Virus genome (UHGV): UHGV-1390708
Length of the DNA stretch: 40,460 nt
DNA from: a virus
Reading direction: 5' to 3' (one strand)
In this document: positions 7,098 through 11,311 of the stretch, one piece after another
Position numbering within the stretch: the stretch's first letter is position 1
Layout: each line of letters begins with the position of its first letter
Program-made: the position numbers and the translations under genes
The notes under the pieces: model-generated
The model's input: the letters and a program-made list of their open reading frames with translations, nothing else
Told to the model about the DNA's origin: nothing
Database searches by the model: none

Positions 7098-8066
7098 TTA
7101 GTAGGTTATTTTTGTTGCGAATACTTCGCCTTTTACGATGGCTGTTATGATATTTTTAGCAACATCTTCTGATGCGCCAACCTTGATAAGGTCAGCAAGT
7201 ATTTTGTTATTTACTTCTTTCCGGTGAGCTTTATCCTTTGCTCTACGCTCTTCTTCGTCCTTGATTCTTTTTTCTTCTGCTATTCTGGCTTGCTCTTTTG
7301 CTTCAGCCTCGCGACGGATTCGTTCAGCCTCCTCCTGTGCTTTTCTGCGTTCTGCTTCAATTGCTGCCTGCTTTTCTCTTTCAGCTCGTTCTGCTGCCTC
7401 TTTTGCTTCGCGCTGTGCTCGTTGCTCGGCTTCAATGCGTTCACGCTCTGCACGTTCCGCTGCGGCCTTAGCTTCTGCTTCTCGCCTTGCTGCTGCTTCA
7501 ATTTCGGCTTTTGCCTTTGCTTCGGCTTCTGCTCTGGCTTTCTCTTCAGCTTCTCTTTTTAAGCGTTCTTCATGCTCTCGCTTTTCCTGCTCCGCTTTGA
7601 GTCTTGCCTCTTCTCTTTGGCGGTCAAATTCGCGATCCATCAAAATCGCTATTTCATGGTCAGACTCAATTTGCTTTGCGAGAGCTTCAGCTGCTGCCTT
7701 AGCTTCTTCTTCGGCTTTAATCCGTGCCTGCTCCTCCTCATAATCAGTAAGAGGCTGGCGCGCCTTGGCTTTCAGTTCATCAAGGCGATCGCGCACTGTC
7801 TTGCGGTTGGCATCAATTAGCTTTGGAATTTCCTTCAGTTCAGCAACAAGGTCTTTGCCAAGACCATCGAGATATGTTTTCGTCTGCGCAACTTTATACG
7901 CCAGAGAAGCGATCTCCTTTCTGCCCTTTGCCGTTGTGATATCAGGCACAAAGGACATAACTTCACGTTCAACCTTTTGAAGGATTTCTTCAATCTGGTC
8001 GGCAGACTGAAATACAGTCATTGCATTTGCTTTTTCAATAACAACTAAATCTGTTACTTCACTCAT
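7098..8066 (-). CDS. Large coiled-coil protein, 322 aa from MSEVTDLVV. It has a globular N-terminal domain (possibly DUF1351-like), a long E/A/K/R low-complexity helix and a short C-terminal domain.
   Basis: GGAGG Shine-Dalgarno sequence before the ATG at 8066. About 150 aa of EAEAKAKAEIEAAARREAEAK-type sequence. Confidence 0.6.
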   Translation of the reverse strand: MSEVTDLVVIEKANAMTVFQSADQIEEILQKVEREVMSFVPDITTAKGRKEIASLAYKVAQTKTYLDGLGKDLVAELKEIPKLIDANRKTVRDRLDELKAKARQPLTDYEEEQARIKAEEEAKAAAEALAKQIESDHEIAILMDREFDRQREEARLKAEQEKREHEERLKREAEEKARAEAEAKAKAEIEAAARREAEAKAAAERAERERIEAEQRAQREAKEAAERAEREKQAAIEAERRKAQEEAERIRREAEAKEQARIAEEKRIKDEEERRAKDKAHRKEVNNKILADLIKVGASEDVAKNIITAIVKGEVFATKITY

Positions 8067-8077
8067 ATATCCTCCGT

Positions 8078-8107
8078 CAAAAAAATTGCCCTCACACTGG
8101 AGGGCAA
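8078..8107 (-). terminator. Intrinsic terminator inside the pL operon (tL-like).
   Basis: Minus-strand hairpin TTGCCCTC-CAGTGT-GAGGGCAA followed by TTTTTTT. Confidence 0.7.
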
Positions 8108-8241
8108 AGAAGATTTCCAATAATCAGAACAAGTCGGCTCCTGTTTAGTTACGAGCGACATTGCTCCGTGTATTCACTCGTTGGAATGAATACACAGCGC
8201 AGTGTTTATTCTGTTGTTTATGCCAAAAATAAAGGCCACCA

Positions 8242-8442
8242 TCAGGCAGCCTTGTTATTCTGTTTACCAAGTTCTCTGGCAATCATTGCCGTCGTTCGTA
8301 TTGCCCATTTATCGACATATTTCCCATCCTCCATTACAGGGAACATTTCTTCAGGCTTAACCATGCATTCCGATTGCAGCTTGCATCCATTGCATCGCTT
8401 GAATTGTCCACACCATTGATTTTTATCAATAGTCGTAGTCAT
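8242..8442 (-). CDS. ral: Ral restriction-alleviation protein, 66 aa.
   Basis: MTTTIDKNQWCGQFKRCNGCKLQSECMVKPEEMF... matches my recollection of lambda Ral. It sits in the N-to-cIII interval. Confidence 0.7.
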   Translation of the reverse strand: MTTTIDKNQWCGQFKRCNGCKLQSECMVKPEEMFPVMEDGKYVDKWAIRTTAMIARELGKQNNKAA

Positions 8443-8512
8443 ACGGATAGTCCTGGTATTGTTCCATCACATCCTGCGGATGCTCTTCGAACTCTTCAAA
8501 TTCTTCTTCCAT
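8426..8512 (-). CDS. Lambda orf28-like acidic mini-protein, 28 aa (MEEEFEEFEEHPQDVMEQYQDYPYDYDY).
   Basis: Hand-translated. Its size and its position between N and ral match lambda orf28. Confidence 0.45.
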   Translation of the reverse strand: MEEEFEEFEEHPQDVMEQYQDYPYDYDY

Positions 8513-8570
8513 ATCTCACCTCAAATAAGTGGTTTGCTGCCTAATTTCATTTTCTGGCGACCAACACAAG

Positions 8571-8843
8571 TCATCTTGCTGTCAGTTGTTTTGATTTCCG
8601 GTAGCCTGCCGCGTAAATGGCTACGTTTGGCAGGCAAATACTTCCACTGCATTCATCTGCCTTCTTGCAGCGAAGGCTTCCGAGTGATGCTGCTTTGTCT
8701 GCTCTGACGCAACTAGAGATCTTTAGCGCAATTTTTCGCGCAAGTCTCTGCTCTTGCATTGCCTGTTCACGTTGAGCCTGCCTGCGTGCTCTGCGGCGAT
8801 TTCTGGCGTTATCGTCAGCCAGATATGTAATGACTACTGTCAT
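8571..8843 (-). CDS. N: N-family transcription antiterminator, 90 aa, with an N-terminal arginine-rich motif.
   Basis: Arginine-rich motif DDNARNRRRARRQAQREQ. The C-terminal AIYAAGYRKSKQLTAR resembles the P22 gp24 / phi21 N tail. GGAGG Shine-Dalgarno sequence. It is the first gene downstream of pL and nutL. Confidence 0.8.
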   Translation of the reverse strand: MTVVITYLADDNARNRRRARRQAQREQAMQEQRLARKIALKISSCVRADKAASLGSLRCKKADECSGSICLPNVAIYAAGYRKSKQLTAR

Positions 8844-9200
8844 GTTGACCTCCGATGATTGACTTTGGTGGTGACGCGCCGGGTGCTTATCTTCCGGTTG
8901 CCGTCGTGCAGCTGCACTTCACGTCACCCCAAAGCCAACTACTCTTTGACTCACACTCTCGCAGTGAGCGCGCTCATGCCCTTGAGTCTCTGTCGCTTAT
9001 TAGCCGCTGATAACCGGTGCGCGTCTGGCATTCGCGCTGCCTTTCCGGAGCATGTTCCCTTATTTACCCTCACATCGGTCTGCTAAACCTGCTCGCCATT
9101 ACGCGACTCGGGGCAGCATCATTACTGCTGCATTGCCTTTCGGCTGCGGTCTAACCGCGTTAGTGCACCATTACGGCACCTCCTGTTTGGTTAAACTCAG

Positions 9201-9242
9201 TTCCCGCATTTCGGCGGGACAATCCCATCAATGTTAAAGAGC
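9201..9242 (-). promoter_or_regulatory. nutL: nutL: boxA GCTCTTTAACA (9232-9242) plus a boxB hairpin (9201-9220).
   Basis: The minus strand reads GCTCTTTAACA-N12-GTCCCGCCGAAATGCGGGAA. The same boxA and boxB recur at nutR. Confidence 0.75.
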
Positions 9243-9288
9243 CTGCCAATCTGTTCCGTTTGGCTACCAGCGTCCTGCTGATGGCTTA

Positions 9289-9374
9289 AAGATAACTTAG
9301 GTTATAGGTGTGGTCAATAACCTAATTTATATTTTGTGGTAAATAAGTTATAAGTGATGGATAACAAAGGTATT
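9289..9374 (-). promoter_or_regulatory. OL: pL (-35 TTGACC at 9312-9317, -10 TATCTT at 9289-9294, 17-nt spacer) with OL operators.
   Basis: Operator sites are ATAACttagGTTAT (9292-9305), ATAACctaaTTTAT (9317-9330) and a degenerate ATAACaaagGTATT (9361-9374). Confidence 0.7.
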
Positions 9375-9496
9375 TTATTTTTGTAAATGTTGCTGATTGA
9401 TTGGTGTTTGAGGGCTTGCGTGCGGGGTGAAGGTGTTACCTTTGGCTTGATGCTTGTCTATGATGATGATGGGTGATTGGGTGGTGAACGGCAGGA

Positions 9497-9530
9497 AAAG
9501 AAAACCCGGCGCTGAGGCCGGGTGTTTTTA
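9497..9530 (-). terminator. Intrinsic terminator after the cI-linked moron. The hairpin has T-runs on both strands.
   Basis: CCCGGC-gctgag-GCCGGG. The minus strand continues TTTTCTTTTCC. Confidence 0.75.
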
Positions 9531-9824
9531 GTCTTTTCTTTTGCTTAGCATTTCGTCGATTTCTAAGTCAATACGATATTGATCTATTGCTTTTCTCTCG
9601 TTTGGGGTTGGTATTTTATACTGTTCAATTAGATCTGTTGTGTATTTTATTTCATCTAATGTGATTTTTATATCAGAGAGAATCTCTTTTATATCAATTA
9701 GATGCTCTTCTTCTTTTGCGCGATTAGAGCTATGTTCAATCACTTGAGATAGCTTTTTACTAATGCTTAGCAAAACAAAAAGAATGATGACCAAAACAAC
9801 AACAAAAACTATCAGAAATTCCAT
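9528..9824 (-). CDS. Membrane-anchored coiled-coil protein, 98 aa, family unknown. A lysogen-expressed moron in the rex position.
   Basis: GGAGGG Shine-Dalgarno sequence 3 nt before the ATG, 40 nt after the cI stop. N-terminal TM segment EFLIVFVVVLVIILFVLLSI followed by a charged helical region. Clearly AT-rich relative to the flanks. It has its own terminator. Confidence 0.75.
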   Translation of the reverse strand: MEFLIVFVVVLVIILFVLLSISKKLSQVIEHSSNRAKEEEHLIDIKEILSDIKITLDEIKYTTDLIEQYKIPTPNERKAIDQYRIDLEIDEMLSKRKD

Positions 9825-9864
9825 TATCCCTCCGCACTTCCGTAAGTCTTCTTCTGATTATCGG

Positions 9865-10572
9865 TTACCAACTATGAGACGACCAGAATACTCTGCCAAT
9901 AATCCTTACGGTTTCATGAAATTCATCTCTATCCATTACTTCATCCGGGTACTCTTCGCGATTTATTGATCTGATTATCACCGATGTAGGGGTGGCGATT
10001 AATGTTTTTACTCGTAACAAATCAGACTGGCAAATAGCGTAGGTTTTACCATCTCTGATGGTGGTATCTTGCGTGTTAACACCAACAACATCGCCATCGT
10101 GAAGCGTTGGTTCCATGCTTTGCCCTACAACCCTAACTAGCTTGGCTGATCTTTCAGATACTCCCATCTTTTTCAGATAGTGCTTTCTGAAAACCAAAGA
10201 GAACTCCGATGATTCCTCTAGCTCGCAGCTACCGCTTCCAGCTGAAAGCGAAACGTTAAGAAGAGGCAACGCAACAAACTCGTCATCGTTTCTTTTAATG
10301 TCTTCCCATACCACAGCTTTTAAAGATGACTCACGGACATTGGATGGTTCTTCATGTGCACCATCCCTCATTTCACCAATACCAGAACTAAGCCATTCAG
10401 GGCGCACTTTTAAAGCATTGGCTAATTCAACCATCTTGCGAGATCCGTTTGTTTTACCGGACGACATCTTCTGTATGGCTGGCTGAGATATTCCAACCAT
10501 GTCAGCAAGCTGTGATTGTGATACCCCTGCTGAGCTCATGGCTGCATTTAGTCTTTCTGCGAATGTTTTCAT
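9865..10572 (-). CDS. cI: CI-type prophage repressor (HTH_XRE plus S24 LexA-like autopeptidase), 235 aa from MKTFAERLN.
   Basis: HTH segment SQSQLADMVGISQPAIQKMSSG. Ala-Gly candidate cleavage site in LSAGSG. Ser in GQSMEPT and Lys in LRVK. The track start at 10602 is a TTG codon inside an operator. Confidence 0.85.
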   Translation of the reverse strand: MKTFAERLNAAMSSAGVSQSQLADMVGISQPAIQKMSSGKTNGSRKMVELANALKVRPEWLSSGIGEMRDGAHEEPSNVRESSLKAVVWEDIKRNDDEFVALPLLNVSLSAGSGSCELEESSEFSLVFRKHYLKKMGVSERSAKLVRVVGQSMEPTLHDGDVVGVNTQDTTIRDGKTYAICQSDLLRVKTLIATPTSVIIRSINREEYPDEVMDRDEFHETVRIIGRVFWSSHSW

Positions 10573-10584
10573 ACCCACAAATCT

Positions 10585-10650
10585 ATAACTACGGTTATCC
10601 AAAGTAAAATAACAAAGGTTATTGCTATTTTTTATAACTTGAGTTATCTT
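10585..10650. promoter_or_regulatory. OR: OR: three 14-bp operators ATAAC-N4-GTTAT interleaved with pR and a candidate pRM.
   Basis: Perfect sites at 10585-10598, 10609-10622 and 10634-10647. pR has -35 TTGCTA (10622-10627) and -10 TATCTT (10645-10650), 17-nt spacer. Candidate pRM -10 is TATAGA (minus strand, 10582-10587), 9 nt from the cI ATG. Confidence 0.75.
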
Positions 10651-10683
10651 TGGTTATAAGTAATGACCACAAGAGGTATGCTC

Positions 10684-10908
10684 ATGAATTTAGTAATTCA
10701 ACGAGCCTTGAAAATTGTCGGTAGCCAAAAGCGCCTTGCCGACAAGTGTGGTGTAACGCAGCCAGCAGTACACAAATGGCTGAAAGGCGGGTTGGTCTCT
10801 CCAGAGAAAGTTACCGCCATCGTTAACGCCACTGGAGGGCAGATCAAGGCTTACGAAATTCGCCCCGATTTGCCACACCTGTTTCCAAAACCGAATCAGG
10901 CAGCATAA
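10684..10908 (+). CDS. cro: Cro-type HTH repressor, 74 aa from MNLVIQRAL.
   Basis: AAGAGG Shine-Dalgarno sequence 7 nt upstream of the ATG at 10684. HTH segment QKRLADKCGVTQPAVHKWLKG. It is the first gene after pR. Confidence 0.8.
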   Translation: MNLVIQRALKIVGSQKRLADKCGVTQPAVHKWLKGGLVSPEKVTAIVNATGGQIKAYEIRPDLPHLFPKPNQAA

Positions 10909-10915
10909 GTAACAC

Positions 10916-10960
10916 CGCTCTTTAACAGTCATGGTCCTCATTCCCGCCGAAATGCGGGAA
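10916..10960 (+). promoter_or_regulatory. nutR: nutR: boxA CGCTCTTTAACA plus boxB hairpin TTCCCGC-CGAAAT-GCGGGAA (10941-10960).
   Basis: Read directly. The boxB sequence is the same as at nutL. Confidence 0.75.
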
Positions 10961-11007
10961 TACAACGCGCATAAGTTGATGCGCATAACTTCTTATTTGC
11001 TAAGGAA

Positions 11008-11040
11008 ATACTTACATATGGTTCGTGCAAACAAACGCAA
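11008..11040 (-). promoter_or_regulatory. pRE: pRE: CII-binding TTGC-N6-TTGC (11027-11040) and -10 AAGTAT (11008-11013).
   Basis: The minus strand reads TTGCGTTTGTTTGCacgaaccatatgtAAGTAT. This is lambda-type and overlaps the cII start. Confidence 0.75.
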
Positions 11041-11311
11041 CGAGGCTCTAAGAATCGAGAGTGCGTTGCTTAACAAAATCGCAATGCTTGGAACTGAGAA
11101 AACAGCGGAAGCTGTGGGAGTTGATAAGTCGCAGATCAGCAGGTGGAAGAGGGACTGGATTCCAAAGTTCTCAATGCTGCTTGCTGTTCTTGAATGGGGT
11201 GTCGTTGACGACGACATGGCCCGATTGGCACGACAAGTTGCTTCGATTCTCACCAATAAAAAACGCCCGGCGGCAACCGAGCGTTCTGATCAAATACAAA
11301 TGGAATTTTAA
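11018..11311 (+). CDS. cII: CII transcriptional activator, 97 aa.
   Basis: MVRANKRNEALRIESALLNKIAMLGTEKTAEAVGVDKSQISRWKRDWIPKF is lambda CII as I recall it. Confidence 0.9.
   Translation: MVRANKRNEALRIESALLNKIAMLGTEKTAEAVGVDKSQISRWKRDWIPKFSMLLAVLEWGVVDDDMARLARQVASILTNKKRPAATERSDQIQMEF

Follow-up and report, generated by a model that had tools for sequence, protein, structure and literature searches.

HK620-type nut sites with a probable GNRA boxB tetraloop, and their N gene, in a P22-like E. coli phage genome

Background

[quoted passage not shown] The lambda boxA reads CGCUCUUA and is not of the rrn type, CUUUA; the rrn boxA itself reads ugcucuuuaacaauuua, and in the lambda spacer an AUU is critical for NusA binding (PMC2724277). 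The boxA of imm21 is identical to the E. coli boxA (PMC3177189).

The boxB hairpins of the described systems, which we read from the actual phage records, differ in stem and loop. Those of lambda are GCCCU-GAAGA-AGGGC (nutL) and GCCCU-GAAAA-AGGGC (nutR), those of P22 are GCGCU-GACAA-AGCGC (nutL) and CCGC-C-GACAA-C-GCGG (nutR), and those of phi21 are UCUCAAC-CUAACC-GUUGAGA (nutL) and UCACCU-CUAACC-GGGUGA (nutR); the nutL boxB of H-19B is the same as that of P22. Both lambda and P22 N are said to recognize a GNRA-like fold of the pentaloop from which one base is extruded. One extruded base in the lambda boxB pentaloop is reportedly what Legault described in 1998, and in the P22 complex the C of GACAA, according to work attributed to Cai et al. 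in 1998, is said to be extruded and to contact the peptide.

The system closest to the one considered here is that of HK620 (AF335538), in which features 7753-7794 and 9423-9468 are annotated as “nutL; putative N-utilization leftward” and “nutR; putative N-utilization rightward”. In the present manuscript, we examine a stretch of viral DNA of 40,460 nucleotides (UHGV-1390708; hereafter, the window), in which a preliminary description made from the sequence had recognized two nut sites and a cognate N gene and had proposed that their boxB, unlike those of lambda and P22, forms a separate recognition pair with N. The window represents a P22-like E. coli phage or prophage, and its first 25 kb match CUS-3, HF4s, Kapi1 and HK620 at 95-97% in mosaic pieces. 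We conclude that the two sites are very probably the nutL and nutR of an HK620-type N/nut module carried by a Lederbergvirus-type (P22-like) E. coli phage or prophage, and that their boxB is probably a GNRA tetraloop.

Results

The nut sites of the window and their genomic setting

At both sites, a boxA that fits the consensus YGCUCUU(U)A lies 5' of a hairpin, and the short boxB stem-loop follows on the 3' side within the ~8-20 nt expected of a lambdoid N/nut system. The rrn-type boxA, GCTCTTTAACA, is found at 9232-9242 on the minus strand and at 10917-10927 on the plus strand, and it is the E. coli rrn boxA extended by the first bases of the spacer, ugcucuuuaaca (rrn sequence from PMC2724277). 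The leftward site, nutL, reads GCTCTTTAACA-TTGATGGGATT-GTCCCGCCGAAATGCGGGAA along the minus strand from 9242 to 9201 and is made up of boxA GCUCUUUAACA (9232-9242), which phi21 has as well, spacer UUGAUGGGAUUG (9220-9231) and the boxB hairpin UCCCGC-CGAAAU-GCGGGA (9202-9219), whose loop occupies 9208-9213 with a GAAA core at 9209-9212. The rightward site, nutR, reads GCTCTTTAACA-GTCATGGTCCTCA-TTCCCGCCGAAATGCGGGAA along the plus strand from 10917 to 10960; it consists of the same boxA GCUCUUUAACA with a C just 5' of it (10917-10927), spacer GUCAUGGUCCUC (10928-10939) and the boxB hairpin AUUCCCGC-CGAAAU-GCGGGAAU (10940-10961, loop at 10948-10953). AUU is found in both spacers, and neither hairpin is followed by a U-tract. 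The nutL hairpin is predicted to fold with 6 bp at -10.5 kcal/mol (z = -3.3) and the nutR hairpin with 8 bp at -12.5 kcal/mol (z = -3.9).

The two hairpins have in common the 16-mer CCCGCCGAAATGCGGG (CCCGC-CGAAAT-GCGGG), at 9203-9218 on the minus strand and 10943-10958 on the plus strand. All sequences quoted in the preliminary description are present where it had placed them, and only its gap of 12-13 nt between boxA and hairpin needs adjustment: the exact gap is 11 nt (nutL) and 13 nt (nutR) to the 20-mers that it quoted, and 13 nt and 15 nt, respectively, to the 16-mer. The five-base loops that it gave for lambda and P22 agree with the phage records.

The positions of the sites are those of the annotated HK620, P22, phi21 and lambda maps, with one site in the pL leader upstream of N and the other in the gap between cro and cII. 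On the minus strand, nutL stands between the 90-aa N gene and a pL-like promoter at 9289-9317 (TTGACC, 17 nt, TATCTT), which is ~47 nt upstream of the nutL boxA and was recognized by its match to the consensus; the pL of HK620 is annotated at the equivalent place. Between the two nut sites lies a cI-like repressor ORF (9865-10602, minus strand; from the ORF list), where matching phage records annotate a CI repressor. A cro-like ORF (10663-10908, plus strand), likely starting at an internal ATG at 10684, ends 8 nt before the nutR boxA, and the first gene after nutR is a cII-like ORF (MVRANKRNEAL..., 11018-11311, plus strand). This arrangement, together with the assignment of N to Pfam PF25694 and PHROG 271 and with the HK620 annotation, upholds the initial reading of the sites as nutL and nutR and of the gene as their cognate N.

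Several structures downstream of the sites resemble terminators. A consensus scan reported a hairpin with a U-tract downstream of N (8232-8253, minus strand), which is a candidate for tL and for a target of antitermination, and a second one further along the pL operon (8086-8107, minus strand), likewise a putative terminator. On the rightward side, a hairpin GCGCAU-AAGUUG-AUGCGC followed by AUAACUUCUUAUUUG (10967-10999, plus strand) was read directly from the sequence and was not reported by the terminator scan; it is possibly a weak terminator at the tR1 position, since HK620 tR1 is marked just after nutR. Around pL and pR (~9290-9360, minus strand; 10575-10660, plus strand) there are also inverted repeats of the form ATAAC-N4-5-GTTAT, e.g., CTATAACCTAAGTTATC and TTATAACTTGAGTTATC, which are probably the OL and OR operators of the window’s immunity type.

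An HK620-type module with a mosaic N protein

Compared with HK620, nutL is identical over 51 nt comprising boxA, spacer and boxB, and nutR is identical as well; the N proteins are 95.6% identical with identical ARMs, and the gene order (pL, nutL, N and cro, nutR, cII) is the same. CCCGC-CGAAAU-GCGGG occurs at both sites, and the ARM is DNARNRRRARR. Two differences stand out: HK620 is without the structured leader of ~250 nt that the window has between boxB and the ribosome-binding site of N, and the immunity region of the window (cI/cro) is of another type, for which the best match is Stx1a phage Stx1a_10051. As judged by sequence, the window nut sites and N are an HK620-type module, annotated since 2001, which the preliminary description had read correctly and which is not new.

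The module is also widespread, so that, with the HK620 annotation, the novelty claimed for the pair does not stand. A search for the hairpin in related prophages, which had been suggested as a check, finds it readily. The 56-nt nutL region is present at ≥98% identity in ~25 phage records, among them HK630, HK140, mEpX2, CUS-3, IME10, N7, HF4s, ECP1, JEP4, Gally and several Stx1a and Stx2c phages, and a “putative Nut boxA site” is marked in some of them; the region is also present in 496 of 5426 complete E. coli genomes (~9%, in prophages). Pantoea phage PA-1 and Erwinia phage vB_EhrS_49 contain diverged versions. Rfam has no family for the nut sites, whether the whole window is searched at the gathering threshold or 8500-11100 and nine related loci at E ≤ 1, and we found no characterization or printing of the CCCGC-CGAAAU-GCGGG boxB in the open-access literature. 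The only hit in a literature search for the HK620-type pair is the epsilon34 genome paper, which speculates on a novel BoxB specificity of its own N.

The N antiterminator gene (8571-8843, minus strand) encodes 90 aa and is recognized by its likeness to HK620 N, by Pfam PF25694 (N_peptide; score 63.6 bits, cutoff 27.9) and by PHROG 271 (E = 2.6e-33). When its modules are compared with those of HK620, P22, phi21 and H-19B, the protein is a mosaic of three parts. Residues 1-32 carry the HK620-class ARM, DNARNRRRARR (residues 12-27 are NARNRRRARRQAQREQ, and 12-22 form the ARM), residues 33-63 are almost the same as in phi21 N, and residues 66-90 match the end of H-19B and P22 N, CLPNVAxYAAGYRKSKQLTAR. 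The ARMs themselves can be aligned as NAKTRRHERR in P22, NARNRRRARR in the window and TAKSRYKARR in phi21. A PDB sequence search with N returned spurious RNF168 matches only and no solved structure of a related N.

Just downstream of N, at 8521-8574 on the minus strand, a reading frame that starts at an ATGA overlapping the N stop codon encodes MTCVGRQKMKLGSKPLI*, a relic of a lambda/phi21-type N C-terminus (the end of phi21 N is GVTCVGRQKIKLGSKPLI). In IMG/VR, this C-terminus remains in frame in many N proteins that carry the same ARM. It appears from these sequences that a P22/H-19B-type C-terminal module was inserted ahead of the lambda/phi21-type end.

Comparison with P22, phi21, lambda and H-19B

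Among the described hairpins, the window boxB is closest to the P22 nutR boxB, from which it differs by one absent loop C and a C-to-U change. The P22 gp24 (N) system has the same layout as the window, its nutR boxB has the stem and the mismatched loop closure in common with the window, and P22 N has the N-terminus MTVITY and the C-terminus ...AAGxRKSKQxTAR that are also found in the window N. However, the P22 loop is the pentaloop GACAA whereas the window has a GAAA core without the C, ARM positions 7-8 are HE in P22 and RA in the window, and the middle of the window N is phi21-like rather than P22-like. The initial designation of the boxB as “non-P22” is true of the loop, but the P22 nutR boxB is close, and the ARM aligns with those of P22 and phi21.

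The likeness to phi21 lies elsewhere. The upstream flank, boxA and spacer of phi21 nutL are homologous to those of the window (ATTGGCAGGCTCTTTAACATYGAYGG), and the nutR spacers are similar; both systems have a six-base loop and the ARM pattern [N/T]A[K/R]xR[R/Y][R/K]ARR. Yet phi21 has the hexaloop CUAACC (type CUAACC/CUARCN) and a Tyr in the ARM (SRYKARR, with RY), whereas the window has CGAAAU, i.e., C-GAAA-U, and an Arg at that place (RRR). With lambda, the window has in common the architecture of boxA, spacer and boxB, the GNRA-type loop and the N-terminal ARM (PMC8632103), but lambda has the pentaloop GAAAA or GAAGA (GAARA, carried by a GCCCU/AGGGC stem), which the window lacks, and the lambda ARM is unrelated in detail to the window ARM. 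H-19B was considered as the source of the window boxB and rejected, as its nutL has the P22 boxB GCGCUGACAAAGCGC and a different ARM.

Co-occurrence of loop and ARM types across relatives

We scanned IMG/VR with three different anchors. In the first scan, anchored on boxA and the loop (GCTCTTTAA-N8-30-CCGAAATG), an N ORF follows every nutL-type site with a real stem, giving 60 distinct N proteins; all 60 contain an ARM of the form ...[D/S/N/G][D/N][N/T][A/T][R/K]NRRR[A/E/D][R/K]R, while the middle and C-terminal modules vary.

The second scan was anchored on the DNA encoding the ARM, and was hence independent of the loop. It gave 124 hits, and a boxA with a CGAAAU loop is found upstream in 111 of them. 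Other loops are present in two, CUCCGC-AGAGAU-GCGGGG (locus L130) and CUCCGC-AGGAAU-GCGGGG (locus L133), and three have too little upstream DNA. In the remaining eight, no boxA was recognized within 650 nt: six are rearranged and/or have a longer leader, one has a variant boxA with a normal loop (L131), and one is mEp213 (L002), with half a boxB.

The third scan was independent of boxB and combined boxA with the hairpin conserved just 3' of boxB, AACCAAAG (GCTCTTTAA-N20-50-AACCAAAG). It reveals three kinds of pairing on the same nutL scaffold: GNRA-type loops with RRR ARMs, including one C-GAGA-U loop (L183); CUAGCA loops with N[A/S]KNRYRARR ARMs (L187 and L205); and a GAAAA-type loop with NNARLRRMERRK (L182). 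At L187 (5705-5775) and L205 (nutL at 2011 of the reverse complement, nutR at 8245), the nutR loops are CUAGCA and CUAACC, and the scaffolds are near-identical to those of the HK620 class; the sequences suggest that the loop was naturally exchanged together with an Arg/Tyr change in the ARM.

The preliminary description had spoken of a six-base CGAAAU loop. These six bases are indeed present, but the loop is more aptly regarded as a GNRA tetraloop with a C..U mismatch on its flanks. Together with an NRRR-type ARM, the four central loop bases are GAAA, GAGA, GGAA or GCAA (the nutR loops of L130 and L020 are C-GCAA-U), all of which fit GNRA; across 18 distinct hairpins, neither the loop G nor the final A changes, and C..U or A-U stands on either side of the four bases. 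Variation is thus confined, at the level of sequence, to the N and R of G-N-R-A, and the ~6 substitutions, observed among related sequences, are suggestive of a GNRA tetraloop whose closing position is a C..U mismatch or an A-U pair.

Across >100 loci, ARM and loop type co-occur strictly, and other boxB types carry other ARMs, although the loci are phylogenetically related and so represent few independent events. This association supports a distinct boxB/ARM specificity class and with it the separate N-boxB pair of the preliminary description. A bolder proposal, which we put forward tentatively and with rather less than even confidence, is that the HK620-class pair is a natural fourth ARM-boxB solution, in which a GNRA loop without an extruded base is closed by C..U, the ARM is about one Arg/Tyr away from the phi21 class (NRRRARR vs NRYRARR), and cross-reaction with P22, lambda and phi21 would not occur.

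The most serious competitor to a separate specificity class would be a P22-type pair that has lost the extruded loop C and whose N and boxB are interchangeable with those of P22 and H-19B. In its favor are the resemblance of CCGC-C-GACAA-C-GCGG in the P22 nutR to CCGC-C-GAAA-U-GCGG in the window, the alignment of the ARMs (NAKTRRHERR in P22, NARNRRRARR in the window), the N-terminus MTV(V)ITY common to both N proteins, and the GNRA-like pentaloop fold that lambda and P22 N are said to recognize (attributed to Legault and to Cai, both 1998). The scans, however, speak for separate pairs: a GACAA loop is found at none of the 111 ARM-anchored loci with nutL in reach, GACAA loops accompany the different ARMs of P22 and H-19B, and there are no mixed pairings among the scanned loci. 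We therefore consider interchangeability with P22 unlikely, though it deserves to be taken seriously.

Stem covariation and the nature of the hairpin

In the 18 distinct hairpins, 88% of cells pair, a percentage that is inflated because only hairpins with at least five of six pairs had been admitted. Compensatory changes occur in four of the eight pairs, e.g., G-C is replaced by A-U at the second pair and U-A by C-G at pairs 6 and 7. Covariation scores 0.379, compared with 0.241 +/- 0.027 in shuffles, of which none of 500 reaches this value, and in slid registers the paired cells fall to 37-60%. At the position of the C..U mismatch, a pair forms in the two A-U variants alone.

A separate feature was observed at nutR sites of the Pantoea/Erwinia type, where the third pair from the loop is a C.A or C.C mismatch and the second pair changes from G-C to A-U. 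The mismatch is seen at L003 (955-985, minus strand), at L004 (620-650, minus strand) and in the nutR of L115, L130 and L020; from these sequences, it looks like a conserved internal mismatch.

Covariation bears on whether the hairpin is a protein-binding boxB at all, as it could be conserved mainly as a recombination boundary, a terminator or an RNA-processing hairpin. CUS-3 annotates the nutL spot as “bsq5; boundary sequence”, the recombination junction of mEp213 falls inside the hairpin so that only the 3' half and the loop are left, and module junctions lie on either side of nutL. But a terminator is at odds with the missing U-tracts, and the loop is invariant or GNRA while the stem covaries, which argues that selection acts on the RNA structure and on the identity of the loop; the hairpin follows boxA at a fixed distance and co-occurs strictly with one ARM. 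A role as a recombination boundary is, moreover, compatible with the hairpin being a boxB as well. That it is conserved mainly for such other roles strikes us as very improbable.

The significance of the sites comes from the combination of boxA, hairpin and position rather than from boxA alone, which at ≤1 mismatch has at least two matches in 21 of 100 shuffles. The boxB 16-mer, on the other hand, has only its two matches in the window even at ≤2 mismatches, compared with 0.01 expected from shuffles, and none of the 100 shuffles contains two or more. A chance repeat or functionless duplication, for which one could cite that boxA alone is statistically ordinary in the window, is refuted by these 16-mer statistics, by the divergent orientation at the canonical nutL and nutR positions, and by conservation, including compensatory changes, across hundreds of genomes.

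A structured leader RNA between nutL and N

The window contains a conserved structured leader RNA of ~250 nt (8947-9196, minus strand) between the nutL boxB and the N ribosome-binding site, at one copy per locus. At its beginning are a Shine-Dalgarno sequence and the mini-ORF AUG-GUG-CAC-UAA. Homologues with 77-88% identity lie in unannotated intergenic DNA of other phages, namely Hafnia phage yong1 (in the pL leader), Klebsiella phage RothC (between Q and tRNA genes), E. coli phage vB_EcoS-733R5, Providencia phage PSTCR7lys, Stx2c phages and mEp213. The leader 20-mer GCCAGACGCGCACCGGTTAT is found exactly in at least 95 distinct IMG/VR versions that are 58-87% identical to the window copy; among the matches listed, 72 of 95 have a Shine-Dalgarno sequence with a mini-ORF of 1-3 codons (M*, MKH*, MVH*, MKQ*), and the genes downstream are very diverse (N, lipoproteins, a methylase, tRNAs). 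In the flanks of the alignment, as inspected by eye, an intrinsic-terminator-like end precedes at least 6 of 19 aligned copies. RNAalifold predicts 35 pairs, 10 of them with compensatory changes, for 19 diverse copies, and 56 pairs, 14 with compensatory changes, for 6 copies. Rfam contains no match to the leader (window at the gathering threshold; 8500-11100 and nine related loci at E ≤ 1), and a 15-mer from it was not found in any open paper. These features suggest that the leader may be a portable regulatory leader.

The region between nutL and N is variable in other ways. In HK620, PA-1 and Eho49, a hairpin CCAAAG-N9-CUUUGG lies directly 3' of boxB, and H-19B has it with a shorter N5 loop. 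It maps to 1356-1378 in L001, to 2541-2563 in L003 and, in the window, to 8928-8948 on the minus strand, where the leader insertion stands between this hairpin and boxB and truncates the 5' arm of the hairpin; it may be a processing or regulatory hairpin of the N leader. Across the IMG/VR loci, the distance from the end of the loop motif to the N start codon takes discrete values (112, ~316-318, 336, 363, 406, 432 and 449 nt), from which the N leader emerges as an insertion hot spot, and the leader RNA was shown to be present in the 363-nt and 449-nt classes.

A related rearrangement is seen in mEp213 (L002, 1497-3254), whose pL operon contains two tandem N genes, one HK244-like and one of the HK620 type. 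Upstream of the second N are the leader element and only the loop and 3' arm of boxB (~2131-2150), without a boxA, which indicates a recombination junction inside boxB.

Conclusions

By homology with lambda (PMC8632103, a review; PMC2724277) and H-19B (PMC3526286), the HK620-type module can be expected to work as follows. RNA polymerase starting at pL or pR would transcribe boxA, where NusB and S10 are expected to bind, and then the spacer, where NusA would bind; the boxB hairpin would be transcribed next and bound by the N-terminal Arg-rich helix of N (DNARNRRRARR). The phi21-like middle of N would bind NusA and its P22/H-19B-like C-terminus RNA polymerase, and the resulting complex would be termination-resistant and read through the terminators of the early operons. 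N-boxB binding, the Nus contacts, antitermination and the absence of cross-reaction with P22 or lambda are all inferred.

Within this stretch, the leader RNA with its mini-ORF, which is uncatalogued, is a more open question than the nut sites. The value of the latter is comparative and modest, and it concerns RNA-peptide recognition. If the HK620-class boxB is indeed one without a flipped-out base, any contact of a host factor with that base would have to be absent or replaced. More generally, boxB loops (GNRA tetraloop, phi21-type hexaloop, lambda/P22-type pentaloops) are swapped on conserved nut scaffolds, accompanied by small changes in the ARM, and these loop/ARM swaps are a ready-made specificity-switch series for orthogonal N/boxB tethering tools.
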